64,000 nt of DNA from Pinctada imbricata. Taxonomy: Eukaryota. This document shows, in pieces, positions 19,763 through 62,657 of the stretch. The translations under genes were made by a program, and so were the position numbers. Position 1 is the stretch's first letter. Each line of letters opens with the position of its first letter. The stretch lies in the NCBI GenBank assembly GCA_033119305.1, contig VSWD01000008.1:62068347-62132346 (forward strand), given 5' to 3'. Under the pieces are notes generated by a model, which saw nothing but the letters and a program-made list of their open reading frames with translations, was not told the origin of the DNA and made no database searches.

Positions 19763-19890
19763 CTGAAATTATAAGCAAGGAAAACTTCTGTTTATCTTGA
19801 TTATCGCACCTTTCCTAATAGATCCTAACAATACAGAACTTTATGTCAGAAGTGCTGTAGGAATTTTGTCTAGTTAGCACAAACACTATT

Positions 19891-28936: not shown

Positions 28937-29338
28937 CCGACAGAAGGATTTATACAGGCAACGTTTTTGTGTTAACAACTAAATGACGTAGAGAGTATCA
29001 GGAAAATGCATGTTCACAACGTCTTTTACAATTTTTTGGATTATCTATAAAAGTAAAAAGAACAAAACTTCCAAAATGGCCTCTAATTAATCTAATACAC
29101 AAATTAAGTTATACATACCCTTTCGTGTGACCTTTAGTACCCTTTACTTGACCTTTGCTTCTGCCAGGAGTCCCTGAAAGACATACTCAATTAATGATGT
29201 TTACAGATAATTGACGTCGAACTTCCTGTTACACCAAAACAAGTTTAATTTTCAGATTTTTTTCTAAGTATCTAAGTTGTATGGTGGCATTCTTCTGCCT
29301 CCTACATGCGAGATATTTTCTGTAGATTATGTCGTCAT

Positions 29339-29450
29339 GAGACTTATTTGTGTCAACATACAAGATAATTATGTTGACATGCAAGATAATTATGTTGACA
29401 TACAAATTAATTATGTTGAAATGCAAGACAATTATGTTGCATGTTGACAA
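29339..29450 (+). repeat. Minisatellite with a ~22-bp unit (tgttgacatRcaagataattat), ~4.5 copies
   Basis: Read directly. Confidence 0.7.
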
Positions 29451-33800: not shown

Positions 33801-34150
33801 CACATGACCTTGGGTCAAGGTGATGTGAAACCTTCAGGTCATAAGCAACAACATACTAAAATATGAAAGTGATCCGGCAAATGGTTCAAGAGATATAGCC
33901 CGGACAGGAATGTATGCATAATTTCATTAAAAATGCACGAAGTGACCTTGAACTTGGTCACATGACCTTGGGTCAAGGTGATGTGAAACCTTCGGGTCAT
34001 AAGCAACAACATACTAAAATATGAAAGTGATCGGGCTAACGGTTCAGGCGATATAGCCCGGACACGATGTGTGACAGACGGACAGACAGACAGACAGACG
34101 GACGACGAAGGCAAAACCAATATGTCTCCTCTCTGTTGGGGGGGAGACAT
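30820..34150 (+). repeat. Family F5 array: a ~158-bp unit (gcactaagtgaccttgaccttggtcacatgaccttgggtcaaggtgatgtgaaacc...). There are ~9 diverged copies, then a nested F2 insertion, then 5 near-identical copies. It ends in (GACA/GACGGACA)n plus the hairpin atgtctcctctctgttgggggggagacat
   Basis: Periodicity and the terminal 8-bp-stem hairpin (ATGTCTCC/GGAGACAT) read directly. Confidence 0.75.
32186..33302 (+). mobile_element. Complete family F2 element (~8 x 120-bp units) inserted into the F5 array between aaaaat and gcactaag, with at most a 1-bp duplication
   Basis: F2 5' and 3' termini are present. Flanks are tcattaaaaat | element | tgcactaagtgacc. Uninterrupted F5 units read cattaaaaatgcactaagtgacc. 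Confidence 0.7.
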
Positions 34151-34270
34151 AAATACATGTATATAAACAATAAAATATGAAATATCCAACTGTAACTCTT
34201 CTAAATGTCTCCTTGACAATGTGTATGGAGGAAAACAAATACTTAAGCATAGAAAATATAGGATTCTTAC

Positions 34271-34479
34271 CGACATATTGGTCAGCCTCAGGTTTATCAC
34301 TTTCTGGCCTACCATGTTTCTTTTTTACAGGTGGTGGTTGTCGCTGCCGTTCCCATTCCGCTCTATTCAGTTTGATTCTCAGATATATAAGAAATTTTTC
34401 TATGAGACCAGGTTTACAGGCGACAATACCTTCGATCAAATCATTGTCAACCTCAAAATTGAATCTTTTGAAAACTTTC
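34271..34479 (-). CDS. SPEF1: SPEF1-like gene B exon 3 (end of the CH/DUF1042 domain): (R)KVFKRFNFEVDNDLIEGIVACKPGLIEKFLIYLRIKLNRAEWERQRQPPPVKKKHGRPESDKPEADQYV. Acceptor ttctgtatttcag; best donor G|GTAAGA at 34270 (alternative donors at 34329 and 34313)
   Basis: Aligns with human SPEF1 KVLKRLNFSVPDDVMRKIAQCAPGVVELVLIPLRQRLEERQRRRK (memory). Phase matches exon 2 (AG+G=R). Confidence 0.65.
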
Positions 34480-34605
34480 CTGAAATACAGAAAATTTTCT
34501 CAGTTAACTAAGCGATATTGCTCACAGAAAGGTAATGAACTAAATACTAGTATTGTGAAAGAAGAAAACACTATGGTGTGGTTGTGAAACACTGCATAAT
34601 AAAGC

Positions 34606-36100
34606 CAGTGTTTGTGAAACACAAATGCCCCCGGTGGCATCTTTGTTAGTATGAACACTAATTTCTGTTAAGTACATGTATGTGAGGTCACTGGGTTAAA
34701 AGGTCAAAGGTCAAGGTCACGAGGTCAAAAATTTTGGTATCAATATAAAGGTCTTGTCACAAGGAATACACATGTGAAATATGAAAGCCCTATCACTTCC
34801 CATTCAAAAGTTATGCCCAATGTTAAAGTTTTTGAAAAGTAGGTCAAAGTCCAAGGTCAAGGTCACAAGGTCAAAAATTTCGGTTTCCATGGAAAGGTCT
34901 TGTCACAAGGAATACACATGTGAAATATCAAAGCCCTATCACTTTCCATTCAAAAGTTATGGTCAAGGTTAAAGTTTTTAATAAGTAGGTCAAAGGTCAA
35001 GGTCAAGGTCACGAGGTCAAAAATTTTGGTATCAATGGAAAGGACTTGTCACAAGGAATACACATGTGAAATATGAAAGCCCTATCACTTCCCATCCAAA
35101 AGTTATGTCCAATGTTAAAGTTTTTGAAAAGTAGGTCAAAGGTCAAGGTCAAGGTCACGAAGTGAAAAATTTTGGTATCAATGGAAAGGTCTTGTCACAA
35201 GGAATACACATGTGAAATATGAAAGCCCTATCACTTCCCATCCAAAAGTTATGCCCAATGTTAAAGTTTTTGAAAAGTAGGTCAAAGGTCAAGGTCAAGG
35301 TCACGAGGTCAAAAATTTTGGTATCAATGGAAAGGTCTTGTCACAAGGAATACACATGTGAAATATGAAAGCCCTATCACTTCCCATTCAAAAGTTATGT
35401 CCAATGTTAAAGTTTTTGAAAAAGTAGGTCAAAGGTCAAGGTCACGAGGTCAAAAATTTTGGTATCAATGGAAAGGTCTTGTCACAAGGAATACACATGT
35501 GAAATATGAAAGCCCTATCACTTCCCATTCAAAAGTTATGCCCAATGTTAAAGTTTCTGAAAAGTAGGTCAAAGGTCAAGGTCAAGGTCACGAGGTCAAA
35601 AATTTTGGTATCAATGGAAAGGTCTTGTCACAAGGAATACACATGTGAAATATGAAAGCCCTATCATTTCCCATTCAAAAGTTATGCCCAATGTTAAAGT
35701 TTTTGAAAAGTAGGTCAAAGGTCAAGGTCAAGGTCACGAGGTCAAAAATTTTGAAATCAATGGAAAGGTCTTATCACAAGGAATACACATGTGAAATATG
35801 AAAGCCCTATCACTTCCCATCCAAAAAATATGCCCAATGTTAAAGTTTTTGAAAAGTAGGTCAAAGGTCAAGGTCAAGGTCACGAGGTCAAAAATTTTGG
35901 TATCAATGGAAAGGTCTTGTCACAAGGAATACCCATGTGAAATATGAAAGCCCTATCACTTCCCATTCAAAAGTTATGTCCAATGTTAAAGTTTTTCGGA
36001 CAAACAGACAGACAAACAGACAAACAGATAAACAGACAAACAGACGGACAGGCCAAAAACTATATGCCCCCGAATCTTTGATTCCGGGGGCATAAAAAAA
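34606..36100 (+). mobile_element. Family F3 element: ~10 x 142-bp units, a long (ACAGAC)n and the 3' hairpin atgcccccgaatctttgattccgggggcat
   Basis: Termini and units read directly. A partial duplicate of the 5' terminus (gttgtgaaacac) lies 25 bp upstream. Confidence 0.7.
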
Positions 36101-36944
36101 CCCCTTGTTTGTGTACAGATTTAAAAGACATATTGCAAGTAAGCATCAGACATACAGATTGACTGACAAACTGACAAACTTACTTATTGACTGACCAGAG
36201 TGTTCACACTAGGCAATTACAGGGTAGTGGTTAAGTAGTACATTTAGGCCCACATCATGATGATGTGGACCTTCAGCATTGTTCAAATGATTGATGTTTG
36301 TAATTTTAGTCTTTGCTCATTGGGCAGATCAAAGTACCAATAGTACTTATATGCTCTGGAGGTCAGGATTCTACCTATTCCTCCCATTCCCAGGTTCAGA
36401 TTCCAACTTTGTGAAACCCAGATGCACAGCTACAAGTCACACCCTAGCATACTGTATGATACCATAAAACGTTTTGTTACCCAACCTTTAAGGAAGAAAA
36501 GCCTACACAACATTTACGAACTAAACCCATATTTTCCCCAACTCAGGGGCCATACCTACACTTTGATACCCTGGTGCACCACTCACTAGAGTCACATCCT
36601 ACCACATCATCTTAAGTTTTGAAATATATCTGTTCAGAATTTTGAGTTGGTCAATTCTGTAACTGTGACTTTTGACCTAACCTAATATTGATAAGTAATA
36701 AATCCTAAACCACTAAAGACAGTAATTCTGGGTTGCAAAGCACTATTAAGTATTAGTTGATCAACTTGATGTTTACTTTATTAATTGAAGGTATTGTTAA
36801 AAGTAATCTATACATGTGAAATAGCAAGGCCCCACCCTTTATAGTTTAAGACACATTGTCAATTTCATTGGGGGGGGGGGGGTTAAAACTCAAGGTCAAG
36901 GTCAAAGTCCCAAATAAAGCCTAGGCAATGCATAGCATAGCATC

Positions 36945-38645
36945 CCCTCGCACTGCCCCCTCTAGGCTGTATAAAAAGATTTTGACCTTTTCCAATCTGT
37001 GACCTTGACCTTTGGCCTTTTAAAAATCAATAGGGTTCTTCCTCTTTTTAAAAGCTATCATTGTATGAAGTTTGGTTAAGGTCCAATCAAAACTGCGTCC
37101 TCTAGGCTGTATACAAGGATTTTGATCTTTTCCAATCTGTGACCTTGACCTTTGACCTAAAAAAGTCAATAGGGTACTTCCTCTTATAAACTATCAAGAG
37201 TATGAAGTTTGGTTAAGACCCAATCAAACCTGTACCCTCTAGGCTGTATACAGGGATTTTGACCTTTTCCAACCTGTGACCTTTGATCTTTGACCTAAAA
37301 AAATCAATAGGGTACTTCCTCTTATAAACTATCAAGTGTATGAAGTTTGGTTAAGACCCAATCAAACCTGCACCCTCTAGGCTGTATACAGAGATTTTGA
37401 CCTTTTCCAACCTGTGACCTTTGATCTTTGAGCTTGAAAATCAATAAGTTTCTTCCTCTTATAAACTATCAAGAGTATGAAGTTTGGTTAAGACCCAATC
37501 AAACCTGCACCCTCTAGGCTGTATACAGGGATTTTGACCTTTTCCAACCTGTGACCTTTGATCTTTGACCTAAAAAAATCAATAGGGTACTTCCTCTTAT
37601 AAACTATCAAGAGTATGAAGTTTGGTTAAGACCCAATCAAACCTGCACCCTCTAGGCTGTATACAGAGATTTTGACCTTTTCCAACCTGTGACCTTTGAT
37701 CTTTGAGCTTGAAATCAATAAGTTTCTTCCTCTTATCATAAACTATCAGTGTATGAAGTTTGGTTAAGGCCCAATCAAAACTGCACCCTCTAGACTGTAT
37801 CCAAGGATTTTGACCTTTTCCAATCTGTGACCATGACCTTTGACCTAAAAAAATCAATAGGGTACTTCCTCTTATAAACTATCAAGAGTATGAAGTTTGG
37901 TTAAGACCCAATCAAACCTGCACCCTCTAGGCTGTATACAGGGATTTTGACCTTTTCCAACCTGTGACCTTTGATCTTTGACCTAAAAAAATCAATAGGG
38001 TACTTCCTCTTATAAACTATCAAGAGTATGAAGTTTGGTTAAGACCCAATCAAACCTGCACCCTCTAGGCTGTATACAGGGATTTTGACCTTTTCCAACC
38101 TGTGACCTTTGATCTTTGACCTAAAAAAATCAATAGGGTACTTCCTCTTATAGAACTATCAAGTGTATGAAGTTTGGTTAAGACCCAATCAAACCTGCAC
38201 CCTCTAGGCTGTATACAGGGATTTTGACCTTTTCCAACATGTGACCTTTGATCTTTGACCTTGAAAATCAATAGGGTTCTTCCTCTTGTCATAAGCTATT
38301 AGTGTATGAAGTTTGGTTAAGGCCCAATCAAAACTGCACCCTCTAGACTGTATCCAAGGATTTTGACCTTTTCCAATCTGTGACCTTGACCTTTGACCTA
38401 AAAAAGTCAATAGGGTACTTCCTCTTATAAACTATCAAGAGTATGAAGTTTGGTTAAGACCCAATCAAACCTGCACCCTCTAGGCTGTATACAGGGATTT
38501 TGACCTTTTCCAATCTGTGACCTTGACCTTTGACCTACGACCTTGAAAATCAGTAGGGTTCTTCTTCTTGTCATAAGCTATCAGTGTATGAATTTTGGTT
38601 AAGATCCAATCAAAACTGCACCCTCTAGGCTGTATACAAGTATTT
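36945..38645 (-). repeat. Family F4 array: a ~120-bp unit, ~14 copies (ctctaggctgtatacagggattttgaccttttccaacctgtgacctttgatctttgacc...). It is the reverse-strand counterpart of the AGGTCA satellites, ending next to an imperfect palindrome atccccctgcaactatgttgcaaggggata
   Basis: Units contain tgaccttgacctttgacc, the reverse complement of ggtcaaaggtcaaggtca. Confidence 0.75.
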
Positions 38646-38699
38646 TGTGACACACACACTCACTTGCACACGAACGAGGGCGTTACTATATCCCCCTGC

Positions 38700-39100
38700 A
38701 ACTATGTTGCAAGGGGATAATGAAAGGCCATGTCACACAGAATCTTCATGTTTTTGGTTCAAGAGATATAGTCAAGCTTAAAGCTGTTGAAAAGTATGCC
38801 ATACTTCAAGGTCAAGACCACTAGGTCAAAGCCAAGGTTATAAGGAAACTACAAGTGAAATATGTAAGCTCTACCCATTACGATTCAAGAGAAATAGCCA
38901 AAGTTAATGTTTCTGAGGTTAAACTTCAAGGTCAAGGTCATTATGTAAAAAATAAAGGTATCAAATGAAAGGTCTTGTCAAAAGGAATTTACATGTGAAA
39001 TATGAAAGCCCTACCCCCTACTATTCAAGAGATTTTCCAAAGGTTGATTTTTTTTTTAAAGTTTGTCAAACTTCAAGTTAAAGGTAACAATTCAAAGGTC
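38700..39100 (+). repeat. Degenerate AGGTCA-type satellite copies
   Basis: Diverged ggtcaaggtca...catgtgaaatatgaaagccct units. Confidence 0.4.
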
Positions 39101-42100
39101 AAGTCAAAAATTTATTTATAACATCATAATCCATAGTTCATGTAAATTAACTTGTCAATACTACTCATAGTTTTCTCCCTATTGCCTTACACACAAGGAT
39201 CAAGTTCAAAATCAAAAGTTTTTGCTGTGTTGAATTCGCCTCATAATGGTCTTTCACCATGTAAAAGTTACAAGTAGCTACTCCAAATAGTTTTCTGCCA
39301 ACAAACTTAAATGCAAAAGCTTAACCAAAATGTTGACAGAGACAGAAAAAACAATGGACTGACGAATGGGCTGATGGACTGGACAAACTTTGCCATTTCC
39401 TTTAACTCATTTGGTCATAAGCAACAAGTGTGAAGTCCCTTTTATATTATATTCCAGTAAGCATGAGGAACAAACACATTCCTATATGATGTTGCTATTA
39501 ATAAGTATATCATTAGGGTATAAAAGTTCTTTTTGCTTATGAATGTAGAAGGAATTTTTTTAAACAGACAGGCAGTCAGGACAAAAGCAGTATGCTCCAT
39601 AATAAGATTATATAAATAAGGATGTCTTTCTCTACTAGGCCATAACTTTATATACATATATATACATTTACTACAATCAAAACATAAATTTCTACACTAA
39701 AGGATACGATATGTATACCTGAAATATCTAGGTCTAGCAACTATCCTATGCTTAATAAATAAAGCAGTTGTGGTTGCAAACATTTTTTCAGTGAAACAAT
39801 GTGAAGAAAAATATAGATAAGGCATATATATTTAGGTAATACAGTAGAAGATAAACAAGTATAACTGAACTTTTAAAAAAAGAAGGTTAATCAAAATTAG
39901 ACGGTAGAAATGAATATGCTGTGTACCAAATACATTTTCACTATTTGGCCAACACTATGATGTTTATATCAAGAGTGAAAAAAGAGGGTGAGTCAATGAT
40001 ATGTGTAGAGGTAAAGGATGTTAACTATTAATCAACCGTACAAAACTCTTGGTTTTCATGCCTCTGAGATGACAAATGATTACATGAACACAATCTTTAT
40101 AGTGATATTTAATCTATCTTCGATGATCTTATAATGTTCTCCTTTACAATCTTATCTTGAATTTAAATAGAAGGATAATATGTTTTTTATAAGAAAAATT
40201 CAAAGTCCCTTACGAAAAAGGGCGCTTTTTTATGCTTGATCTATTATAAATACAGATTTGGTTGCGGACTAAAACAATTTTCAAATTCATAAAAGAGTTT
40301 TCTCAAAATATTTCAAAATTTTTACCTTTCATGGTAGATTTTGTACCTTATCATAGTCGCTCCCTTTGATATCAGATATGACAACGGATGCTGGAAAGAC
40401 ACTTGGTCACTGCACTATGATAATGGCTCACTTGAGCCTTTAGCTCTAGTGAACTGACAAAAGGGGAATGCGCTCTAAGATAATAATTACCTGTTAAGTG
40501 TTCTCCAGTTATTTGTCTTTTTGTCCGCAGCACTACATGGAGAAAAATTATGCATTTCCACTGCTTGGGGGAAAACATTTTTTACAATTTCAGCGACAGG
40601 AACTGCAAAATGAAGTAATTTATTCAGCCATTGCCCTATTCAGATACTAACTCAGACCTAAAACAATCTAACTGCTGTGTCAAAGCTTTAGTCACAAAAA
40701 AAAATTATATTTAACATCAAATCTGTTCTGAATTCTTGACGATGTTTTTTATTTTGTGTTTTCAGAATACATTTGTGTCTTTTCAATGAAAAACATTGCA
40801 GAAAGAAGTTAACTCAGAAACGATATGTTGAATCAGGTCTGTACATATCATAGCCTTAGTACATGTATAGAAAAACTGACAGATAAAGGTCTATGTAATC
40901 CTTTACATATGTTCATACGCAGCACTTTTAACTAGCAATGTGTTACTTTAAAAAGTACTTGACGGCTATTATGCAGACAGGGGAATTTAGGGAAAGCATG
41001 CTCAATATTGGGATTGACATATTCCCAAACATCCCAAGGGGAAATGAACAAGAATTCTCTGAGGAGACTGAAGCTCTTCTGGTTGTTTGGATTAAAGTCA
41101 CCATAGTGAATGAAGTACTTATACCCTTTATATAGGGCTCTAGCTCCTCAATTGTGTTTTGCTGACATCTAAAGCTAACCTTTTAGTTAGAAATGGAAAA
41201 AAGAAATTCAGCATGGATTTTGTTGAACATCATGAAATAAGGCGTAACAGTCAATTTTAGGTAAAACTGCAGAAAAAAACTCGATTAATTCCTAAATATG
41301 ACTTAAATAACACAATATGCATTACAAAATATGTATGATATTAACCCAAATGGTCTAGCTTGTAACAATCAGGAAAGATGAGAAAAATATCAAAGCTTTG
41401 TCTCTTGCACATCTCTTTTGTGTCTTGAAAGAAATTTCAAGTAAAATTTTGAATTTTTGAAAGGTCAAACATCAAGACCATTAGGTTAAAAACCTTTGAT
41501 TGATGGACAAACAGACAAAAGTCACCAATCTTCATGTATACACAGGTAATAAGGTAATAAACTCTAGGCTTGAGTATTGTCAGGTACCCTACGATACCAT
41601 ATGGTATCACAATATGAGGTTGCGATATGATAGTAGCACGATACTTCCAACTTTATATTTCTTTCATTATTATTTTTTAGGCTAATGTAATTTGTTTGGG
41701 ATCTTTGTTCAGATAATATTGATTGTCTGATAAAGATGAAAGAATGATCTTAAATTTGGTGAAAGAAAAAAAAAAACATTGAATTTGATGCCTATTTCCA
41801 GGTTTTTACCTTTCAAATCTCAAATAATTTAAGGAAGGTGAAAAAAAGTCATTAAATGTTGTTTTGAAGTAGATATTAACCTTTCCAATTTGAATTAACC
41901 ATTGTTGCAATATTGTGATACCTGGGTCACAATACAATACGCGTATCGTACAACCTCGTGATCAATACTATCAATATATTGTTACAAGCCTAATAAACAC
42001 CAATGACCGTTAGTGACACTCAGGAGTAAAGAGGTAGTTTGTGAATTGTAACAATGAGAACGAAAATCAAATTAATGCAAAGTATATCATTAGAACGATA

Positions 42101-43317
42101 TAAATGAATTGAAAGAATTAAGATTCAGAAAAAACATAGATGTGCAACCTTTTTTGTAGATTTACTTTTTTTATTTATTTTTATCAAAATGATATCCTTA
42201 GTAGTTATTTGATTTTTAGAAAGAATTTCCTGAAATTTGGATGGGACTTGCACCATATATACTAGCTGCAGATCATATTATATATGATATTACTACAATG
42301 TATTTATATACATGTATTATTTATAAATCTTCCATATCATGCATTAAAATGAATAATTTCTCAAGAATTAAAAGGTTCATTAGCTGAATAAAAGCAGCTG
42401 GACAGTTGACTTTTATAGATTTTATTTTCATTTTTCAAACTTCCCTATACCCGGAGGTTAAAGTATGATTAAACGACTCACAGAAAGTGATTGCTTGTTA
42501 CAGAAAAATATTTTAAATGTTTGCAACCAACAAAACCACAATAAAACAACACAAACTGAATCAACCTCATTGTTTTGATCAGCTAATTAAACTTTGATTA
42601 GCTAATTAAACTATCTAGATCATGTAACATTATGACAATGAAATATCTATCATGCAACAAACACATCCACAAATTAATGGTGACAAAAATGTCATAAAAA
42701 GACAAAACTACGTACAATAACAACAGCAAATATCTTTGTTAGCTATCATATTAACTTTTTGTAGCTGTAAAAATGATGCGCAAATATGCAGAGCTTATGA
42801 AGTTTTTATGCATTTCAGTCATCCTTAATGTAGATATAAATTATAATCATAGTGAAATGTATCGAATCATTGGCATTATCGAGGTATAGTAATGAATGGT
42901 AATGTCCTTAAAGTTAACATAGCTAGATGAGTGGAATGAATTTAATGTCAGATTGTGTATGTATAGTAAATTCTCGTTAGCTTTACTCAAGATTAATAGG
43001 CAGTTGAAACCTGGCCAGAAATTAAATTCTTTTGTTGACAAGGTCACTTTGTTACCACAATAAAAACAAGTGATTTCATAAGCTCTGCATTTTAACACAC
43101 TTCAAGAGCTACAATGTCATCCTTAAATATTTACATATTTGCTGCAACCCCATTACATCTCAAGCAAGCTCTATGTTAATAAAACTTCCTTTTATAATTC
43201 TTTTTATTTTGCTGTTTTCTGAACAAGTTTTTCATTTCTTGAAATAGTTTTATGGACAATGAACCTATGTCACTAGATTCAAATTTTACTATTTGAAAAT
43301 TACTGCAGTTCAAACAT

Positions 43318-44190
43318 ACAAAAATAGCAATTCAAGGAATGCTTGTGTCACCTGCGAAGTGGCAATTTCTTCTTTTTTTTTTTTTAAAGTAGGTCAAATA
43401 TCTATTTCAAGGTCATTAGGTAAAAAATTATGGCATGTGTAGAAAGGTCTTGTCACAAAGCATACACATGTGAAATATCAAAGCCTTATCATTTACCAAT
43501 CTAAAGACATAGCTAATCTTAGTTTTTCAAGAAGTAAGCCAAATATCTAGGTCAAGGTCACTAGGTCAAACATTATGGTAAGTGTAGAAAGACCTTGTTA
43601 CAAGGCATACACATGTGAAATATCAAGGCCTTATCCCTTACCATTCAAAAGATAAAACCAATCTTAGCTTTTTTTAAAAGTAGGTCAAATATCTAGGTCA
43701 AGGTCACTAAGTCCAAAAAAAAATTGTAGGTGTAGAAAGGTCTTGTCACAAGGAATACACATGTGAAATATCAAAGCCCTATTCCTTACCATTCAAAAGA
43801 TAAAACCAATCTTAGCTTTTTTGAAAAGTAGGTCAAATATCTAGGTCAAGGTCACTAATTCCAAAAAAAAAAAAAAAATGGTAGGTGTAGAAAGGTCTTG
43901 TCACAAGGAATACACATGTGAAATATCAAAGCCCTATCACTTACCAATTAAAAGATATACAAGTAGTCAATCTTAGCTTTTTTGAAAAGTAGGTCAAGGT
44001 CACTAGGTCAAAAATGTTGGTTTGTGTAGAAATGTCTTGTCACAAGGAATAAGCATGTGAAATATCAAAGCCCTATCACTTACCAATCTAAAGTTATGGG
44101 GTGTGACACCCAAAGTGTGACAACAGACGGACAACGGACAATGAGATCCCTAAGTGTTGCTATGATTTGCAGGCTACACAAAAAGACAGC
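43318..44190 (+). mobile_element. Family F2 element (~6 units; poly-A slippage inside the units)
   Basis: 5' aaaaatagcaattcaaggaatgcttgtgtcacctgcgaagtggc; 3' aaagttatggggtgtgacacccaaagtgtgacaacagacggacaa...gcaggctacacaaaaa. Confidence 0.65.
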
Positions 44191-44260
44191 TTGTAGAGGC
44201 ATGAATACAATGTCTGTAACTGATTACAGCATGAGTAAACATTTATAAGGATGGCTGTAC

Positions 44261-44372
44261 CTGTTTAATTCATGCCAATTTTCCTTCTTTTGCTTCATGT
44301 TGTTTGCAGGAGGGTAGTTATGCATATGTATCAAATGTGGGAAGCGATCCTTAATCATTTCTGCCACCATTA
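44261..44372 (-). CDS. SPEF1: SPEF1-like gene B exon 2 (CH/DUF1042 domain): (V)MVAEMIKDRFPHLIHMHNYPPANNMKQKKENWHELN(R). Acceptor ttgtttttgatgtag; donor AG|GTACAG
   Basis: Aligns with human SPEF1 VLVAEVIKFYFPKMVEMHNYVPANSLQQKLSNWGHLNR (memory). Enters in phase 1 and exits in phase 2, consistent with exons 1 and 3. Confidence 0.7.
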
Positions 44373-46584
44373 CTACATCAAAAACAAGCAACATGCAGCA
44401 AATCGTTAAAAAGCAAAACCAAGGGACAAGATGCATGCATGTCAGTGTTAAACAAACCTGGGAATCAATATACAGTTCATTAAAATGTACATAAACATTT
44501 ATATTATTACCGAACAAATTACAGATACATTTTAATATTGGGAATGTTAGGGAGGATGAACAGATCAAGAGGTCTGGTCCCTGAACCTCCTTTGGGGTTT
44601 CTGATTATTTTTTCTTTAAATGTCAGAGATACAAATTTACATCATGGTCAAATAAGAAATATGCCTTACAGAAGCAAAATGCTACGTTGCAGTAGCCAGT
44701 AGATTCACGACTTTGACCTATGACCCAATTCTCAGCCCAGGGTTTCTTGGGATTGCACTATACCTCTGTCAATGCTACTTTATAGAAATACAGCAGACAA
44801 TTCTAAGCTTTTTACATATATGTAATTAAAAATTATCATATGAAACTATACTCATATACCCTGTACAATCAAAGTTAAATCAAACTTTTGTCTAGCAAAC
44901 AACTGCTCATTTTTTTTAAGGCAATCAACAGCAATTCTCTGTAAGAACCAAAGAATTTCAAGACATATTGGCACGGCATGTCATGGATTTTTGAAATTTT
45001 TGGTTTGGAAGTTCAATATGAAGCACTAGTATGTAAATCAACCCCAGTTTTTTCAAAAAGGTTGCCGTTGCCATGGTAACCATGTCTGAAGTTTCAAAAA
45101 TAGGGAAAATCTATAGGACGAGGCATATTTGTAGGCTTCGTTACCATGGAAACAGGTACTTTTTTAATCTGAAATTGCTTTGATTATTTTCTTTTAATCC
45201 TTATTATTATGCATATTTGTAAAGTTTTTTACATTCATCTCGGATGCCTTTTGTATACAAGATGAAAAATTGGGCCTAAAAAGGGTATCAAAAGGCTCTG
45301 TTTTGGGCACTTAAATACCCTTTTTTGCATGTTTTTACTGTTTTACAAGGTTGAAAATTTCATAAAAGCACCAATTTTTGAAGTCCAAATTCTAATTATC
45401 TAATTAGTATCATCTCTGAACTTTACATTAATATGAAAAATTAATTGGGCTAATTTGTCCTTTTATATGCAAAGCAGCATCAAATTTAGTTGCTATGGCA
45501 ACAACCGGCTGAAAGGTTTCCATACGATAGATTTAAACACAACCTCTATCAAACTATCTACACATGATATTGGAACAGAAGTTCATGTATACATCTATCA
45601 GAGGGGTTTTAATATAAAAATGACCTTGAAATTATTTCAAGGTCACCCGCTGAATTTCCAAGGTCGTTAAACTTTAAGTGACCAGATTTGACGAAAAATT
45701 CTGATTTTTCATAAAATTAAGGTGCCAATATTTTAGAAACCTTGAAATATTGAACTTAACAGTTATTTGCCATAAAATGATAAACGTATCACTTATTTCT
45801 TAGAACTATTGATAATGTTTCTTCACATCTTCGAATATCTAAATTCTTGGTGAGTATTTTGATAAAAAAGGGACGAAATCTGTATTTTCTTGTTTTTTTG
45901 ACGAAAAAAAATTTTCCCATTAAATTTCTCCAGTTCAATGAATTCTAAGATTTTTCTTTCTTATATTCATTTGCTTTCATAAAATATATGACCTATGAAA
46001 ATATTCAAATAAAAGATAATTAAAATCGGTAACAAAAACTTTAAAAAATCAATATTTTATGCAAAATTTGAGTCTCAAAGTATAAATGACCTTGAATATC
46101 AAGCCAATGACCTTGAACATTTTAATTGTTCTTATGTAAAAGATTTAAGTCATATCTATACATGCATACATTTTGACAATCTTATGTAATTCTAAAGAGG
46201 AATAAAATCAATTTCAAAGATAATATGAAACAAGCAAAAAGGTCTAATGTTGCCATGGCAACGGTCTTTGGCGACAGAATTTAGGTAAAACTCTTAAAAT
46301 ACCCACTCCAATTTTTTGTTCATTTTATTTGTCAATAAACATCTATTTCCTTTGATGAAAATCATTGGTCTCCTATTGGTGCCTTATGTGATATATAAGA
46401 TTGAAAATGGTCAAAAACACACTAAATTGGCCCTTATTTTCACCTCTTTTTTTCGCTTCATTTTGACTTATTTTGACTTAATACAATAAGCTTCCTGTAA
46501 TAAATATCACATTACTAAGTGTACTAAGTAAGAGTGGAAGTAAGGAAGAATAGATTATAAAATGTTATGATCGCTGAGCGATAT

Positions 46585-47600
46585 AGTCCCCTACCGGCGG
46601 CATATATTTATGTCCTGCAACTCTGGCTATGAATTACTCTTCAATTAAACATATACATGTATGAGTTTAAATTAAACTTACTGTCTGTGCAGCTCAGTTC
46701 TGAGGTTTTATCTGCTTTATCGATTCGAAAAAGAGGTCAAGTGTGACGAAAGTTGAACTTGTTCTGTAACTATCCAAGACTAAGCTGAGTATCAAATTTC
46801 ACCTGAATATCTCTGTTTGTTGCAGAAAAAAGTCTGGAAAACTGACAAAAACTGAATTTTCCAAGTCATAAAGGGGCATAACTCCTCGAAAAATAGGTCA
46901 AACGTGACATAAGTCGAACTTGCTCTGTAACTATCCTAGACCAAGCTGTGTATCAAATTTCATCTGAATATCTTCATCCGTTGCAGAAAAAAAGTACAGA
47001 AAACTGACAAAAACTTAATTTTCCAAGTTATAGAGGGGCATAACTCCTTGTAAAATAGATCAAGCCTGACAAAATTCAAACTTGCTCTGTAAGTATCCAA
47101 GACCAAGCTGTGTATCAAATTTCATCTGAATATCTCCATTCGTTGCAGGAAAAAGTCCGGAAAACAGACAAAAAGTGAATTTTCCAAGTCATCAAGGGGC
47201 ATAACTCCTCGAAAAATGGGTCAAACGTGATGAAGGTTAAACTTGCTCTGTAACTATCCAAGACAAAGCTGTGTATCAAATTTCATCTGAATATTTCCAT
47301 TCGTTGCAAAAAAAAGTCCGGAAAACTGACAAAAACTGGATTTTCCAAGTCATCAAGGGGCATAACTCCTCGAAAAATGGGTCAAGCGTGACGAAAGTCG
47401 AACTTGCTCTGTAACTATCCAAGACCAAGCTGTGTATCAAATTTCATCTGAATATCTCTATCCATTGCAGAAAAAAGTCCGGAAAACTGATATTCGGACA
47501 GACGGACAGACGGAGGGACAGACGGACGGACAGACAGACAGACGGACAGACAGACCGAGAGGAAACTAAGAGTCCCCTTCGGCGTTGCCGGTAGGGGACT
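46585..47600 (+). mobile_element. Family F6 element: 14-bp terminal inverted repeats AGTCCCCTACCGGC, an internal ~160-bp satellite x6 (46720-47490), (GACAGACGGACA)n, and the 3' hairpin agtccccttcggcgttgccggtaggggact
   Basis: 5' tagtcccctaccggcggcat (46587) against the reverse complement of 3' ...ccggtaggggacta (47586). Satellite units read directly. Confidence 0.6.
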
Positions 47601-49860
47601 AATAAAGATGAACAAGCTGTTACAGTGGTATCCATGGCAATGAAGTCTCCGGAGATGGCTTATTTCATAGTCCCAACAGTGCTATAAATAGAATGACCTC
47701 GTTACCATGGCAACAAGAGGTCACATTGGCCAAAAAGTGTCATTTTCATGGTCAGTACTTAATATATACCCATTATACCGAAATTCATCAAAATCCATGT
47801 CATGCCGTGCCGATCGATTTTGGTCCTTACAGAGAATTGCTATTAAATATTTGATAATACTGTAAACTGTTTTTTATTTGCGGCGTCTTATGTCCACGAA
47901 CACCAGTGAGGTGACTGCTTCGCGGTGTTTTATTTTCGCGACATCGTATGTACCTTACTTACTACATGTATATACATTTTAGGATATTTTCGCACCGTTT
48001 TATTGTCAGGAATTCAAGGATCTCGTGAATATTGCGAAAATTAAACGCGAATAAAAGACGGTTTATAGTATCACCAAATTTCGACACCATGGTATCATGT
48101 ATGCAGCTGCTGGTGTTACGTGTATAGTACCATTTCAGAATGACTCAACAAAATCCATGTGATATTCTGTTTTGCAGTAGATACGAAATGTTCTAAAATG
48201 TCATAGGATTAACTAAATTAAAAAAATTAAAGCCTAACCCATTCGTTTACATTTATGGTTTCTGTCACATTAGCTAAACAGACCCACTGTCATAAGAAAT
48301 TCTGACATGCATCACGATTAACAATTGTTGTCAAAGTGAACAATATGACTGTAATCTGCATTGAATTTTATCTCTTCTTGGAATACCTAACCTTTATCCT
48401 ATAGGAGTGTTCCTAAAAAAGGAGGGATTTAGTTACTGGTACTTCGTAGGAGTTTGACAACTGATTTCATTGGTTAATTGCAATGTGACGTCACAAACTG
48501 CCCCCTATTCAGATACACAACAAGTCTTAGAAGGGGCAGTTTGTAACATTGCAGTGCAATTTAACTACAAATTATCCTATGGTTACTGTATACATCATGT
48601 ACATTCATTCAAATGACAGCAGTCTGAAATTAAAATGGGAATATCCTGTAAATATTTTCATTTTTCTGTTTAGTGGATAGGGTGCATGAGTTGATGAAAA
48701 TTTTCAGTTTCATGTACGTTTTGAACAACCTACCGTAAGTTCAACCTACCAAGACATTTAAATTAATAGAAAAATTTAAAGTTAAGACAGCAGAATACAT
48801 CTTCAAAATATGGTGCTCTAGATTTATTGAATATACTTGCTTTTGGTATTCTAGAAGAGGGCTGTTCCATTACATGCATCTGCCATTGACTATTGCCTGT
48901 CACTAGATTGAGAAATTTGAGGGGCTGCGATAGTCAATGGCAACATTATGATTTAAAAATACAGTCCTATTACAGAATCTCAAAACTTGTAAAAAAGGAT
49001 TAATGTCCTCATGGCTCATATTGGAAACTGTAAAATCATGATTTTGTCCAAAGTTAATATAATTACATATACATGTATGTGGCTAGCCTTGTCAATTCTC
49101 GTTTAGTTGCAACTTTTTCTGGCATACATTTTCTATAGATAAAAATAACATACCAGATGGGGACATTTAACATGGAGCCTTAAGAAAACTTTGCAACATT
49201 AGAGGAAAAATTAACATTGAAAATGCTTCATCTTAACATATTTTTCTTATTTAACTTGATTGCGTGCTTCTTATAGTCCTATCACTAGAATGATCAGTTA
49301 TGACAAGACAAGATCTATTGGTCAGTATACTGGTGTTAGAACTGTTTCCAGACAGTAATAGTTTCTGGACAATCGTCCCTTTCAAGTATTTTGAAGAAAT
49401 TTTCTTCCAAAATTTTATGACAATTTTGTACTTCATTTTTAATTTAAATGGAGAATTCAAATTCAAATCATGAATATCATAACAAAATTTTGCATCTAAG
49501 TAACTTTACCACACAACCTTTTAACCCCTCTCTGTCCTGTTTGATATTGCACATCAGGAGAAATTGCAGAGAACCATCCATTTCCACTGAACCCTGATTT
49601 TTTTAAAACTATTATTTAAAGGTGCCTTTCAATTTGGGAAAAATCAGTGACATAATCAAGAAAATTAGGAATAGTTTAAACAGTTTATTATCAGTCCTTT
49701 GATCATGGTCACGTAAAATTATTTCAGGTTGAATCAAACTGTACTCTCAATTTTTGGGAATTTAGGCACATGTAACTTTTTTTGGAAAAATAGTAGTTAA
49801 TTCAGCATTGAGAAAGGGCCGAAATTCGGCCCCAAATTACAAGTATAATAAAATAAAAAA

Positions 49861-49914
49861 TGTGTTTGTGAAAAACAAATGCCCCCGTCGGCATCTATGT
49901 CAAATTGTATAATG

Positions 49915-49946
<32 letters not shown>

Positions 49947-50409
49947 ATATTTTGGTATCAATGGAAAGGTCTTGTCACAATGAATACACATGTGAAATAT
50001 CAAAGCCCTATCCCTTACCATTCAAAAGTTATGGCCAAGGTTAAAGTTTTTCAAAAGTAGGTCAAACTCTAAGGTCAAGGTAACAAATTTTGGTATCCAT
50101 GGAAAAATCTTGTCACAAGGAATACACATGTGAAATATCAAAGCCCTATCCCTTACCATTCAAAAGCTATAGCCTGCAAGGTTAAAGTTTTTCAAAAGTA
50201 GGTCAAACTCTAAGGTCAAGGTAACAAGGTTAAAAATTTTGGTATCCATGGAAAGATCTTGTCACAAGGAATAAACATGTGAAATATCAAAGCCCTATCT
50301 CTTAAATTTGTACCATTCAAAAGCTATGGCCAAGGTTAAAGTTTTTGCAGACAAACAGACAGGACAAATACTATATGTCCCCGAATCTTTGATTACCGGG
50401 GCATAAAAA
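49861..50409 (+). mobile_element. Family F3 element (3 units)
   Basis: 5' tgtgtttgtgaaaaacaaatgcccccgtcggcatc; 3' (ACAGAC)n...atatgtccccgaatctttgattaccggggcat. Confidence 0.65.
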
Positions 50410-50663
50410 TCACTGTTGAATGACAAAGGAGCTATCACAGAAAAACCTTTAAAATTGTCTGGAAACTGTTCCGACAACAGTAAATTGAATTCAAAGTTGC
50501 TCAAGTCAAGGTGGACAAATTTCATGTTTTGTGCAGTTCCCATAATTTGGGCACGACATTTTATTATGCTGTCGTTGACTGAGGTCCCTTACCCGAGGCT
50601 TGTCAGCAATTCATAAGTTAATTCCGGGAGTAGGCCCTGATCGAACTGCCCGCTTTGCGGGCT

Positions 50664-51070
50664 GCTGATGATTGTGACATAAATGCCATTGCATAGGTAG
50701 AAATTGGGTCATTCCCCGCTTCCTTAAATTACATATTTTTACTTCCATCTGTGACATTAATTGTTTAAAATCCCTCTTAAAACGGAGACATTACACAGTT
50801 TTCAATCCAAAGCCATCTACATTGTTGTTGTGACACACTGGAAAGACCGATGCTTGCGATTAGAGCGGAGACCATGTCACATCACAACAACCGATTTAGG
50901 TGGAATTTGAGTGATAGATATACAAGGTGATTGAAAACTATCATCTCACCATTTTTAAGAGAGACTTTAAGCCATGAATGTCGTAGATAGAAGTAAAAAT
51001 ATGTCAGAAAGCTGGGAATGACCTAATAATACCCATGCAATGCAATATGGTATTCATGTCACAATCATGA
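50664..51070. mobile_element. MITE-like element with ~100-bp imperfect terminal inverted repeats (ATGATTGTGACAT...GGTCATTCCC...). It has an internal palindrome and no ORF
   Basis: Left arm 50664-50780 against the reverse complement of 50945-51070. TSD not resolved. Confidence 0.35.
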
Positions 51071-51157
51071 CCACAATACGGGTAGTTCTATCGGCAGGCA
51101 GGTCCATCTCCCTAAATAAACTTATGAATTGCCGACAAAGGATTTTGGTAAGGGTAT

Positions 51158-51634
51158 CAGTCAATGTAGTCCGACTTGCAGACCTACGACGGTGTTATCT
51201 GTCTTTTCGTCTTCGGTCTGACTGCTATGCATAGGCAAAACTTGAGAATTTCGGTGCGAAATTAATTTCGGCAAGTCGTCCTTTTTTTTTTGGACAAATT
51301 CCAGTCTCTTCAACCAAAAAAGAAGTCACCCAGTCCTCCTGTCCCTAAAATGTCCCCTCCAAGCCTAGTTTCGCCTCTTCCTCTCTTCCGATTTTCCTCT
51401 GATCGACTACATTTTGTCATACGCACAGAGGTGAAACCAGGCCTAGAGGGAATTTTTTAGGGGCTGGAGGACTGGGTGACTTATTTTTTGGTTGAAGAGA
51501 CTGGAATTTGTCAAAAAAAGGACGACTTGCCGAAATTAATTTCGCACCGAAATTCTCAAGTTTTGCCTATAGATAGCAGTCAGACCGAAGACGAAAAAAC
51601 AGATAACACCGTCGTAGGTCTGCAAGTCGGACTA
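51158..51634. mobile_element. Foldback-type MITE. Its ~185-bp arms are ~97% identical (TAGTCCGACTTGCAGACCTACGACGG...). The loop is ~110 bp and the perfect 9-bp TSD is CAGTCAATG
   Basis: TSD at 51149-51157 and 51635-51643. The arms were read and compared base by base. Confidence 0.6.
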
Positions 51635-51963
51635 CAGTCAATGGCACATAATACATGTAAAACTGCCCTTGCTTGAATCGCAAGAAGGATTTCAGTTTCC
51701 AAAATGAGCTGCAGACTGTGGTGGATTTTTTATATGCAACATACATCATACTTTATGTGATAATTGACCCTTCCGATTGCGGAGAAAAAATGCAAAATTT
51801 TGTGTCGTCACAATACTTTTACCTCGGACAAACAAGCTTCGAACCTCGGTCAAACATCAAAAGTGCATTGTGACGTCATGGAATTTCTCAAATTTTTCCC
51901 GCGTTCGGAAGGGTCAATTGATTCTGCATGGAATGAAAATAAAAGTCTCAAAGTATCATATAC

Positions 51964-52105
51964 CCCCATCTGCAAAGTCTCTCGATAGATTTTTTTTAGG
52001 TCTTGTCAGTGGGAAAGTATCAATCCAACTGTATAACTCCTCCAGTTCTGCATCGTCATACTGATCATCGTTTTCTGAAACTGTAAGTTTGTCCAATGAT
52101 GCCAT
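51964..52105 (-). CDS. SPEF1: SPEF1-like gene B exon 1 (start codon at 52105): MASLDKLTVSENDDQYDDAELEELYSWIDTFPLTRPKKNLSRDFADG(G). Donor G|GTATAT
   Basis: Matches the human SPEF1 N-terminus MASSVDEEALHQLYLWVDNIPLSRPKRNLSRDFSDG (memory). Phase-1 exit is completed to Val by exon 2. Confidence 0.7.
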
Positions 52106-56810: not shown

Positions 56811-59800
56811 ATTTTTGTAGCAAGATGACCGTGTGATGTTTCTTCCTGCAATAAGATCTTGTTCCATTCCATGCAGTGACTGTGTAAGAGAAACCGTTTA
56901 CAGACGACAGACGGGATGACTTTGACATTAACTTCAGGTAAGTAATGAATAACAAATCTGATTCTATAGGTCATATATTTAATTCAAAATGAGGTCAAAG
57001 GAAATGACAACAAAACTGGAAATTATAAGATGATATGTGGGCAGGTCGGTATAATGATTTTTGTTAAATTATAGAAGTCAGAGTTCATACAATTCTTTAC
57101 ATTTCAGTATTCAACAAAATAATAATCTATTACATGAGTACGTAAGTGCTAATGGAAATTATTCTTTTTCTAAACAGTTGTTGTTTATTGATCTACATCT
57201 AGGGCAGTGAGTAATGCTTTTTGATTTCCATTACTAGGGTCGGTCAATAAAATCTTAATCACATTTCAGACTGTAAGTTACAAAGCTGACACTCTAATCT
57301 TTAAATCACCCTCGCAACCCCGAGTGTTCCCTCTTAAAGAATGACACAGAGTTGGGTGGGTTGAATATCTTATAATAATAATAATGTTTATAATCTATGT
57401 TATGACTAGAAAAATAGGATTTAAATGAAAATAAATACATGTATGTTATAAGAGAAATGGTCAGTACAATGAGAGGAGATGACTGAACAAGGGAAAACGA
57501 GGGTTTTATTTTATAATTCAAAACATGTAAACCAATAACCAATAGTAACCAATGACATTAACAACGAGTTAATAACAGATAATATTGTATACATATACAA
57601 TTTTGGTAAAATATTTTTGAGAATGTTATAAAACAATATGAAATCCCCCATAACCAAGAGGAGAAAAAAATCCTCACTCAAATGATGTATACATTAACCA
57701 AAATTACATAAACATGGTTGTGCAGCAGCACATTGTGCTAAAAATTAGATCATCAGAGTTGTCAGTGATGATGTCAGTATCGATAGATATTGAAATTCGA
57801 TACATCGAAGTTCGATAGGATTTTCTTTAATAAATATTTGTTGTTTTTTAATAAACTTTTACTTGTCTTATTTCACATTGACACAAGTACTTTTTTCACT
57901 TCAAAGCGAGATTCAAGTTTCTGTACACACAGCACATGGATAAATAAATTAACATATCTCAAAAGTATCGAGGGAAAACTGTTCTTACTTCTGTTTCGTA
58001 TTCAGTTTGAATTTATGTACATTAAGCAAACTTATTTTAATACGTAAAATCATCAACAACTTCTTCTCACCATAAGAAGGCCGATGTATGAACATGATTT
58101 ACATCAGTGACAACTCTTCAACTTTACCACATTAATCAATATTACAACCTATGGATTCTATCATGCTTATGTTATAATTCGAAACATCCTTAACTTTGTA
58201 GGCCAAACTAATTAAGGAAAGACTATACTAATTCTTCCCAGTTAAAGAAATGTAGTAACTGAAACAATAAAGACTCAAATTTGAGTTTTCATGTTATTTT
58301 CTAGATATATAGCAAAACAGAAAGGTCAACAGGCTCCAAATAATATTCATTATCACTTATTTTACTTTTAATTAATGATTATAGGAATATTGAAATATTC
58401 AAAATAAATACATTCAAATGAAATGGAATAAGAGTATATGCGACAAAAAAATCCACAACTTGCATGTATAGATTTACGGACAATTCCTTTCAAACATTTG
58501 AAACAACCAATCATTCCCTGAGATTGATTTGGTGCAATATGCATAAAGTATTCTGAAGAAAAATATTTTCCGTTGTTTATAAAGACCCCGAATAATTCAT
58601 TTGTATATCTCCGTTTCTATGGTTAAATTTCTATTGCTGGTGTCAATCCTATTTTTTTCTTAAATACCATGTCATTCTCCGTATGTTCTTTATTAGTTGA
58701 TTTGTACATTTTAAAATACAGCATTTTAAAATAAATTCTTTAGCATCTATACAGCAACAAAGCATCGAAATGGACGATATAAAAACCCCTTCAGAAAATG
58801 AAGAGGAATAGTAACAAAGAGAGAAAAAAAAACCATAAATTCAATAGAAATTTCACAGAGTCCTTTCTTTCATTATAAATACAATATGTACAGTAACACG
58901 GAATTATTCGTTTATGTACAACATGTTGACACTTGTATTAATGAATATTAAAAGAACACATTTTTTTTAAATCTGACAACAAATAAATATATAATTTTGG
59001 CGTACTAATATACCTATACTAGTATTTCTCTCTTTTTAATACAATGCCATTCTTATTAGCAGTTTAGTAGGTAAGCTTGCCAAAAGACAAAACGAAAATC
59101 AAGCAAACCTGTTCAGAATGAATACCTGAAACATTAGACCGAAACAGGCCAACTTGATTTTTGGGGGGTGTAAAATCAAGTTGACCTGTTTTGGTGTACC
59201 GAAATATGTGCAAATTCAAGGAAGAATTCTCTTGCATGTAAGATTGAGCTTTTTATTGTTGACCCTCCCCCTTTTTAAGAGACATAATTACATGTACATT
59301 GTCCTTCCAGATTACAAAAAAAAAAAAAAAATCCAGATCTGCACATTTCAAAGAAAGAGAGCAACAAATGTTTATATATTTTAAAACATAAGATGCCTCA
59401 CTTTTTCGATTCCATCTTTACATAAACATTTGGCAATTCTATATTCATAGTACCATCAATGTCACACAATACTGATTCGTAAGATTTGTTCACATCTAGA
59501 ACACAATCGTCGTAAGACCTATTGAAGAAACTAAACTGATATTTCTACACGTGCAAAGTAACATCATACAGTGCTGTGCATCCACGATGTTTCATCTCTT
59601 ATAGAACAGCATAATTTTAGAATCACGAGGGCTTGCAAATACTGAAATATTACAAAAAATAGACTTTATTACTAATCCAAAAGAGAAATTAGCTTTGTAT
59701 TTTTGACTGATTCTGGTGTTTGATGTCATATTAAGGAGCTCATCCCCCCTATTTTGATTTGACTCAAAAATATTATGCTAATAATGAATTTCTATGACGA

Positions 59801-60505
59801 CGTTTATTCTCAGCGTGAATCCTCTTGTCCCCGTAGCCTCCACTTATGACTGCAAACAAAGTATAACACGCTTTATTAAGGTACATCGTTTATATATGTT
59901 TGTACAAGATACCTTCAAAGCAGATAGATCGACATGCATATATATACAAAATTGTGATTTAAGAGTAAGGACAAGTATTCGATGAGTATTATTAGCTACC
60001 ATGTGCAATGTGGTGACGAAAAATTGCACCATCACCGCTGAACTTGGGTCGATTCAATGAGAAAGATGCAAAGCACAGCTTTTTTTTTGTGATTCCTTGT
60101 AACAACTACTAGTATGAGTATTAAGGGACGATTCTGATGAAATTCTGACTCAAAATACATTGTTTTCTAGCTTTTCTAGTTTTTATATATCAAGAAGATC
60201 ATTTTAGCTGCAGCAACAAAGATTTGATTTCAGCTCCATGCATTTAAAACATCCGAAAAAGCCTGACAAAATAAAGCGTTCTAAGAGTTGAAGTATGAAT
60301 ACTTATTTCATTAAATGGATTCAAATTTGAATTTAACAGCGTCAAATTAAAATATGTGACCTCTGAACTCGCATCATCTTCGTTGAATTGATAATGATAT
60401 AAAAATCTCATCAAAATCCAACTATCTCCTATTACAGACAAAAACAGCGAATGAATAAAGCCTTTCTAATTTTAAAAACAGCGAATGAATAAAGCGTTTC
60501 TAATC

Positions 60506-60640
60506 TTATCTAAGATAGTGTCGTCTGGAAACCAAGCTCAACATGCCTTGTTCTCTGGCCATTTGGTGTTGTAGATCATTTATCCTGGTATCCTTCAGAT
60601 GTAACAGGTGTTCAAGTCGACGAATTTTTGAATTGAGCAT
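60506..60640 (-). CDS. SPEF1-like paralogue C, downstream alternative terminal exon: MLNSKIRRLEHLLHLKDTRINDLQHQMAREQGMLSLVSRRHYLR*. Acceptor tttatag. An AATAAA signal follows the stop
   Basis: 45 codons; paralogue of the exons at 19762, 20004 and 61109. Confidence 0.55.
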   Translation of the reverse strand: MLNSKIRRLEHLLHLKDTRINDLQHQMAREQGMLSLVSRRHYLR

Positions 60641-60968
60641 CTATAAATGACAGGAAAGGAAACAAGATCAAGAATCAATGAGAGTACACAAATCGGCTAA
60701 CTAGTAATGTTCAATTGATATTTCACATATAAGTGATTCACTATGTTCCCTCTAAGATTCTTCAGTTGAATATCACTTGAACAAAGTGAGCTCGCCAGGA
60801 GCTGCGAAATACGTTTCAAAAACTAAACCACTATAGGGAAAGATCGATAGCTTGAACCGTGGTTTAATCCGTCCTTCTCCAAAGGCAAGTAGCTTTCGTA
60901 AACTAATAGTACGACTTCTATATCTGAGATACGTTTTCTTTTTATTTCGGTCAGTACATTTGATCCCA

Positions 60969-61109
60969 CTAGTATCTAATAAAACGTTGTTTTCGTGGTC
61001 CTACATAGTAAAGACCATGTTCGCGCGCTAATTGTTCTTGAAGATCAACAAGTCTGTTGTCCTTAAGTTGCAATAACTGCTCGAGACGTCGAATTTTCGC
61101 ATTTAGCAT
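60969..61109 (-). CDS. SPEF1-like paralogue C, upstream alternative terminal exon: MLNAKIRRLEQLLQLKDNRLVDLQEQLAREHGLYYVGPRKQRFIRY*. Acceptor tttgtag
   Basis: 47 codons; in phase with exon 62657-62525. Confidence 0.55.
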   Translation of the reverse strand: MLNAKIRRLEQLLQLKDNRLVDLQEQLAREHGLYYVGPRKQRFIRY

Positions 61110-62524
61110 CTACAAACGAGAAGAAAAAAATATGTGAGAAAAGAAGGTGGTAGTGATGGGAACTGATCAGTCAAATCTTATCAACTTATTTTTATTCATT
61201 TATTTACTTATCTTCGCGTTAAACAAGCATTTTGTGTGTAGTATGTGCATTACAAAGAACCTCCTTCGGCAGTAAATTTTCTTAAGATGAACTCTTGAAA
61301 TATTTAAGACCAAGACGAGAGGAAACTAATGACCTCATTCGGTTGTAACAGTAGGGTACTAGAATCAGTAAGATGTGCTGATGATAACATTTGACTGATA
61401 AATTACACGAATGAAAAACAATTACTCGTGACATAATTTGTACAAAAACACAAATAAAGTGTTAGCATGAACAAAAATGTTAGATTTCAGAAACATGGCA
61501 GCTGGCGTTCACTATAGAAATTTTAGTACTAGGCCTATTTCAGAAACGGTAGTAATTCTCCACTTTATAAATGCCAGCATGCCATAGTCGGTACAAGGTC
61601 ATTTTTTTAGAAATAGCATTGAGTGTAAGCTTCATTTATGAATTTAATACTGAACTGTACGTCAAAGTCCAAACTAAAAATTTGAAAATGGTAGTGGATG
61701 CCCCCTTCAAAAACGACACTATACCAAAATCTTAAATTGAAAAGAATCCAACGCACGAAATATGTCAATACATTACATGTACTTTTGGAATGTAATCACA
61801 TGACAACTAATAGCATAAAGTCACCAATAAAGATGTCAAAACATCTTTATTTGCAGCCTACCCTTACCACACCCTATATTTCTTTGATGTTGTAGAATGG
61901 CAAGTCTGCAACATTCGGTAGATATGAAATAGTTATTTTGGTTACAGCAAACAGAAAATATAGGTGCATGTGCAAAATGGAAGGTAGTCGTATTTTTGAT
62001 ATACATTTAACAATCGACTCGCGATTGAGGAGAAAAGAACTTGCGGCGAACCATCTTCATAAATCGCGGGTCCGATACGTCCGTCGTCCTACGGAGAGTA
62101 GGACGACGGACGTATTGGACCTGCGATTTATGGAGATGGCGGCGAACATGATTCACGATAATCTAATATAGTCACGATGCAGATTTTCTCTGAGGACCTA
62201 CGCGATATAACATCGGGAGAATGTAGCTAGAGGTTGTTGCTGAAAATGTTGTCTATCATATTAGTTTCCTTCAACTAAACTGGAAGTTTTCATTGATTTG
62301 TACCGAAATTAGGCTTACTTCTTGACGTTTTTCATCCTTTTACGATTTTTTGGTGTTTTTGTAGCCGTATATTTCAGTGCAATGCTTTAAAATCGAAAAG
62401 TTTATTTGATATTTCAGACAGCCATACATTTGACCTCTTATCGAAATCTGAACCACTTGAAAAATTGGGCCTATTTTCCAGCTATCCGAACCTTCTCCTT
62501 TCCTAGATTCTGAATGTTACTTAC

Positions 62525-62657
62525 CCTTATAGTATCGTCCTTGGCCATGCACTCCATCTGTTTTTCTTCCAGGTAACTTCTTGGCACATTGTCTATATGA
62601 GGGTAGATGTACAGTGGTGGATTTTCTAAGTAGTTCTTCCCATCAAAATGGTACGAT
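62525..62657 (-). CDS. SPEF1-like paralogue C penultimate exon: (.)SYHFDGKNYLENPPLYIYPHIDNVPRSYLEEKQMECMAKDDTIR. Acceptor gattttgcag; donor AGG|GTAAGTAAC
   Basis: Consensus splice sites on both sides. Paralogous to 21885-22011 and 12006-12157. Confidence 0.55.

Follow-up and report, generated by a model that had tools for sequence, protein, structure and literature searches.

The analysis makes it likely that gene C, whose 3' part lies near the end of the window (the whole 64,000-nt stretch of Pinctada imbricata DNA that was analysed), is a type II SPEF1 (CLAMP) paralogue, and that its two tandem terminal modules, A and B, are spliced alternatively into isoforms that probably differ in dimerisation or bundling. 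This reading builds on direct observations of exon anatomy, gene identity, family membership, the conservation of both modules and the use of equivalent modules in oysters. By analogy with the latter, the Pinctada gene should make both an A and a B isoform, module B presumably being used as its oyster equivalents are.

Exon anatomy of the 3' end

The features discussed here are collected in Table 1. The penultimate exon of gene C is bounded by the acceptor gattttgcag, before 62657, and by a donor after 62525 in which AGG is followed by gtaagtaac. The exon begins with the base that completes a split Ser codon, and the frame from 62656 is the sole open one, reading SYHFDGKNYLENPPLYIYPHIDNVPRSYLEEKQMECMAKDDTIR, with stops in the other two frames. 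The exon encodes the start of the SPEF1 coiled coil and is conserved in Magallana gigas and in L003, a contig of genomic DNA from a different bivalve. An earlier sequence-only reading of the window had described this exon correctly to the base, in its coordinates, acceptor, donor, phase and translation.

Table 1. SPEF1-related features of the window, in window coordinates
Feature	Position	Strand	Remarks
Penultimate coding exon, gene C (FSP39_019559)	62525..62657	-	133 nt; residues 203-246 (SYHF...DDTIR)
Intron, penultimate exon to terminal exon A, gene C	61110..62524	-	no alignment to L003 or L011 (M. gigas)
Terminal coding module A, gene C, proximal 3' splice site	60969..61109	-	residues 247-292; the choice of the GenBank model
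AATAAA, candidate proximal poly(A) site	60941..60946	-	begins 20 nt past module A stop; pattern match only
Terminal coding module B, gene C, distal 3' splice site	60506..60640	-	absent from GenBank model
Three AATAAA, starts 59877, 59808, 59670	59670..59877	-	~630-840 nt past module B stop; pattern match only
Gene B (FSP39_001445 / KAK3094411.1, type I SPEF1)	19649..52105	-	exon by exon 100% identical to GenBank protein
SPEF1-like two-exon 3' fragment	12157-12006 + 11711-11619	-	152-nt exon with one open frame, then last exon ALEAKVRRLDHLSLVKDLKINYMTSSTKVK and stop

Both terminal modules are preceded by a pyrimidine tract and AG (tcgtttgtag for A, tcatttatag for B), and each starts at a codon boundary, so that either one continues the penultimate exon in phase. 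Module A reads MLNAKIRRLEQLLQLKDNRLVDLQEQLAREHGLYYVGPRKQRFIRY up to its stop codon (MLNAK at the start, GLYYVGPRKQRFIRY at the end); module B, whose phase equals that of A and whose reading frame is intact up to a stop of its own, reads MLNSKIRRLEHLLHLKDTRINDLQHQMAREQGMLSLVSRRHYLR (MLNSK to GMLSLVSRRHYLR). The exons, phases and translations of these two alternative continuations are as the sequence-only reading had given them. The modules lie 469 nt apart, start to start, and a third terminal module was looked for in gene C and not found. At the protein level A and B are 55-59% identical, and their DNA alignment is confined to the coding part, which points to an old duplication. Within the coiled coil, 8 of 27 positions differ; the hydrophobic ones are kept (L20I and L27M being conservative), and at three of the 27 positions Q, Q and E in A are replaced by H in B. 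The basic tails that follow, of ~17 residues each, are wholly unlike each other.

Because an AATAAA stands 20 nt after the stop of A and the next ones occur only after B, A may have its own poly(A) site. The distal trio, by analogy with the oyster transcripts, likely marks a shared distal 3' end. Two further elements were observed around the modules. At 62051-62139, the intron before exon A contains a hairpin (42-nt arms, 93% complementary; 5-nt loop) that may be part of a small transposable element, and a 34-nt unit is repeated in two tandem copies, 94% identical, at 60440-60507, beginning at the stop codon of module B.

Gene identity and the CH-domain half

The penultimate exon joined to exon A is 100% identical to residues 203-292 of KAK3095814.1 (P0193, FSP39_019559), an annotated Pinctada imbricata protein of 292 aa, a match that chance could not produce. 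The suggestion that a second SPEF1-like gene has its 3' end in the window is thereby borne out over the 90 C-terminal residues of this protein, which derives from the same 71.2-Mb P. imbricata sequence as the product of gene B, KAK3094411.1. [quoted passage not shown] The former was detected at residues 30-124 (DUF1042, PF06294; E 3.7e-31, 107 bits against a cutoff of 27), and KAK3095814.1 also matches the SPEF1 CH-domain structure 2ee7 with E 8e-34. Pfam holds no model for the coiled-coil part and gave noise matches only; residues 19-63 of the SPEF1 coiled coil 9IJX are matched by the penultimate exon followed by A or by B, with E 2.1e-6 and 1.8e-8, respectively.

Between 62658 and 64000, neither an exon for residues 1-202 of KAK3095814.1 nor any other coding exon of this family could be found. 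The distance from the penultimate exon to its upstream neighbour is 3.35 kb in L003, more than the 1.34 kb that the window covers on that side. The link to CH-domain exons beyond position 64000 is made by the GenBank model and by orthologous full-length oyster transcripts with the same layout, and the expectation that the 5' exons lie beyond that position agrees with the CH_2 domain of KAK3095814.1 and the result for 62658-64000. When the penultimate exon plus A served as query, a word-indexed protein search gave just three fragments and failed to list KAK3095814.1, despite its 100% match over 90 aa. The protein was recovered with a profile to which type II proteins of gastropods contributed, and negatives from the word index are to be read with care on account of this limited recall.

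Conservation of both modules in another bivalve

The order of the exons in L003 (penultimate exon, A, B) is that of the window. These three exons alone align between the two sequences, with 74-78% DNA identity, and the flanking DNA is unalignable. Module B shares 83% protein identity with its L003 equivalent. Expressed as pN/pS, the comparison gives 0.13/0.75 (penultimate exon), 0.16/0.56 (module A) and 0.12/0.86 (module B). Amino-acid change is low while synonymous sites approach saturation, which argues that both modules, including the unannotated B, are kept by selection. Gene C thus displays the features of a tandem-duplicated last exon, that is, homologous copies with their own acceptor, the same phase and their own stop, each under purifying selection.

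Use of equivalent modules in oysters

Molluscan type II proteins annotated as 'sperm flagellar protein 1-like' (isoforms X1-X19 of M. gigas / Crassostrea angulata: P0110, P0131, P0161, P0121; gastropod P0091, P0092, P0097) constitute the orthologous class. The M. gigas type II gene is 69% identical to gene C and shares with it the exon layout and the type of tandem terminal modules, which number three in oysters and two in Pinctada and the L003 species. They are found at positions 35796, 36253 and 36625 of the M. gigas sequence L011, in the order C', B', A'. One transcript (L006) enters the first acceptor and from there follows the genome without a break for 1975 nt, which takes it across the other two modules; a second (L004) enters the second acceptor and a third (L001) the third, both being collinear downstream of their entry. 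The oyster modules are nested alternative 3' splice sites within a single long last exon, and each entry point supplies a separate coding tail and stop. NCBI isoforms and Logan assemblies include all three tails, the full reading frames of A', B' and C' occurring in 46, 7 and 3 index blocks, respectively, and two tail types are also found in isoforms of Mytilus edulis. A literature search found no papers on SPEF1 splicing in molluscs.

The one-to-one relationships between individual modules are less simple. Pinctada B and oyster C' have the RRHYL tail in common and may be orthologous, but module order and DNA similarity disagree with this: oyster C' is proximal, unlike the distal Pinctada B, and at the DNA level the best match of Pinctada B is the coiled-coil part of oyster A'. 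A GLYYV tail is common to Pinctada A and oyster A'.

Two Crassostrea transcripts, L001 and L002, are not cases of intron retention; they start with an additional exon, which is joined to a penultimate exon lengthened at its 5' side. In M. gigas, the extra exon and the extended penultimate exon correspond to L011 25465-25608 and 33625-33963, and the upstream part is without a conserved open frame. This extra 5' exon may reflect an internal promoter or a non-coding variant.

Two ancient SPEF1 classes in the window

Gene B is the neighbour of gene C and belongs to the same family. Gene C ends 8.4 kb upstream of the start of gene B, and the two are arranged head-to-tail on the minus strand. They also share an equal penultimate-exon phase and the possession of two tandem terminal modules. 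Gene B differs from gene C in its RPTG..RR tail and in a mutually exclusive exon-2 pair, and the two proteins are only 35% identical. In a neighbour-joining tree of 30 full-length proteins (237 columns, 300 bootstraps), the type II class, comprising bivalves and gastropods, is monophyletic with 100% bootstrap, and gene C joins oyster type II with 94%; gene B groups with type I and an annelid with 90%. The RPTG..RR tail is conserved in type I of the molluscs sampled and of the annelid Owenia, and gene C lacks both type I motifs, PEADQ and RPTG. As type I and type II each span bivalves and gastropods, the split between genes B and C predates the divergence of these two groups. The view of the SPEF1-like copies as a local tandem gene family, insofar as it implies recent copying, is contradicted by this depth, as it is by the 35% identity of B and C.

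The orientation of the two genes varies between lineages. In M. gigas, the type II gene (L011 10001-36759, plus strand) and a type Ib gene (44379-46759, minus strand) lie tail-to-tail, in contrast to the head-to-tail arrangement of Pinctada C and B, and an inversion must therefore have occurred in one lineage.

The terminal modules of gene B, at 20004-19891 and 19762-19649 on the minus strand, have the RPTG endings ..FRR and ..YRK, and the first of them is included in the GenBank model. Both group inside type I. Since just one terminal exon is present in the type Ib neighbour of oysters, the duplication in gene B seems lineage-specific. Independent duplications would be the simplest reading of the terminal pairs of genes B and C, a reading that is no more than suggestive at ~40 residues per exon. 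What had been described as the same duplicated terminal exon pair in both genes thus holds insofar as the terminal exon is duplicated in each; the implied shared inheritance probably does not, given the type I character of the gene B exons and the single exon of oyster type Ib.

Alternative explanations

Of the competing explanations, the most serious is that module B is a dead duplicate, a pseudo-exon which splicing always skips, so that the gene makes the annotated A isoform alone. The GenBank model with A alone, the absence from the record of a Pinctada protein containing B and the AATAAA directly after the stop of A are what it would predict, but it sits badly with the retention of the acceptor, phase, frame and stop of B in two species whose introns cannot be aligned, with a pN of 0.12 against a saturated pS of 0.86, and with the use of equivalent extra modules in oyster transcripts. 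We consider a dead module B unlikely. The use of module A in Pinctada is supported by the annotation. The exact sequence of the predicted B isoform is not in a collection of 15 billion proteins, and the searches yielded neither a transcript nor a protein of Pinctada that contains module B.

Two further explanations concern the origin of the locus, and both are far less probable. It is very hard to maintain that a recent local tandem duplication gave rise to genes B and C and carried an already duplicated terminal pair along: their common strand, the 8.4 kb between them and the presence of a terminal pair in each fit such an event, whereas their low identity, their membership of separate classes that each span bivalves and gastropods, the RPTG tail of both gene B terminal exons and their position within type I, and the one terminal exon of the oyster type Ib neighbour do not. 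Orphan fragments produced by exon shuffling or pseudogene formation, unattached to any CH-domain gene, can practically be dismissed. No CH exon of gene C lies within the window, as such fragments would have it, yet the next exon upstream is 3.35 kb away in L003 against the 1.34 kb available here, and oyster full-length transcripts have the same architecture at 69% identity. The annotated 292-aa KAK3095814.1 begins with CH_2 and ends in exactly the 90 residues encoded in the window, which excludes the exon shuffle or pseudogene that the sequence-only reading had named as its own counter-scenario.

Predicted consequences of alternative terminal modules

In mammalian Spef1, the CH domain binds microtubules and the C-terminal coiled coil dimerises; the coil forms a parallel dimer in the crystal structure 9IJX, and phase separation needs dimerisation together with the surface charge pattern (bioRxiv 10.1101/2025.07.31.667833). 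The ciliary function of the mammalian protein also needs dimerisation, and it is for this protein only that microtubule binding and bundling and a localisation to cilia or flagella are known (bioRxiv 10.1101/2025.07.31.667833). Gene C resembles vertebrate SPEF1/CLAMP (2ee7, 9IJX) in its N-terminal CH_2 domain and its C-terminal dimerising coiled coil, and differs from it in a longer middle part, another tail after the coil and a duplicated last exon with alternative acceptors.

In the favoured reading, that of alternatively spliced modules, a constant N-terminal CH_2 domain would provide microtubule binding, and the coding sequence of the coiled coil is divided between the penultimate and the terminal exon. 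The spliceosome would join the penultimate exon either to the proximal acceptor, yielding A, or to the distal one, yielding B; with the proximal acceptor in use, module B would become 3' UTR or be removed by cleavage at the AATAAA at 60946. The two resulting isoforms would have the same CH domain and would differ in the last ~27 residues of the coiled coil and in the basic tail of ~17 residues. Since the hydrophobic positions are kept and eight coiled-coil residues and the tails differ, the isoforms are predicted to vary in the choice of dimer partner or in microtubule bundling, with microtubule binding unchanged.

Significance

The finding on gene C is real but ordinary, since GenBank already lists the gene and equivalent isoforms are annotated for its orthologues in oysters, and it changes little in biology at large. 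Its novelty is minor and consists in a conserved alternative last exon, 60640-60506, that the P. imbricata model does not contain, and in the resolution of the SPEF1 'family' of the window into two ancient paralogues and a fragment, with no recent expansion. A broader idea, which we put forward tentatively and regard as somewhat doubtful, is that the exon for the distal coiled coil has been duplicated independently in two ancient Pinctada SPEF1 paralogues, and two to three times in type II of oysters and mussels, under recurrent selection for alternative coiled coils, which might give a ciliary microtubule bundler a code for dimerisation or condensation that is specific to each isoform, in animals that rely on several kinds of motile cilia. 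The repeated duplication in bivalve SPEF1 of a coiled-coil exon tied structurally to dimerisation and phase separation also offers natural variants on which that model can be tested.

Other SPEF1-like features of the window

The splice sites of the 3' fragment at 12157-11619 are intact and its coiled coil is truncated; the stretch from there to gene B (12.2 to 19.6 kb) yielded no CH exons. The fragment may be a relic, or else an alternative 3' end that gene B has far downstream. The earlier count of at least three SPEF1-like copies stands to the extent that the terminal exons of gene B (20004, 19762) and the fragment at 11.6-12.2 kb are present; the third copy amounts to a two-exon 3' fragment with no CH exons nearby.

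Within the CH domain of gene B, exon 2 occurs in two homologous copies, at 44372-44261 and 40602-40491 on the minus strand, of which the GenBank model takes the second. As both are 112 nt long, they must be mutually exclusive, and the same two exon-2 variants are found among the annotated isoforms of oyster type I genes.
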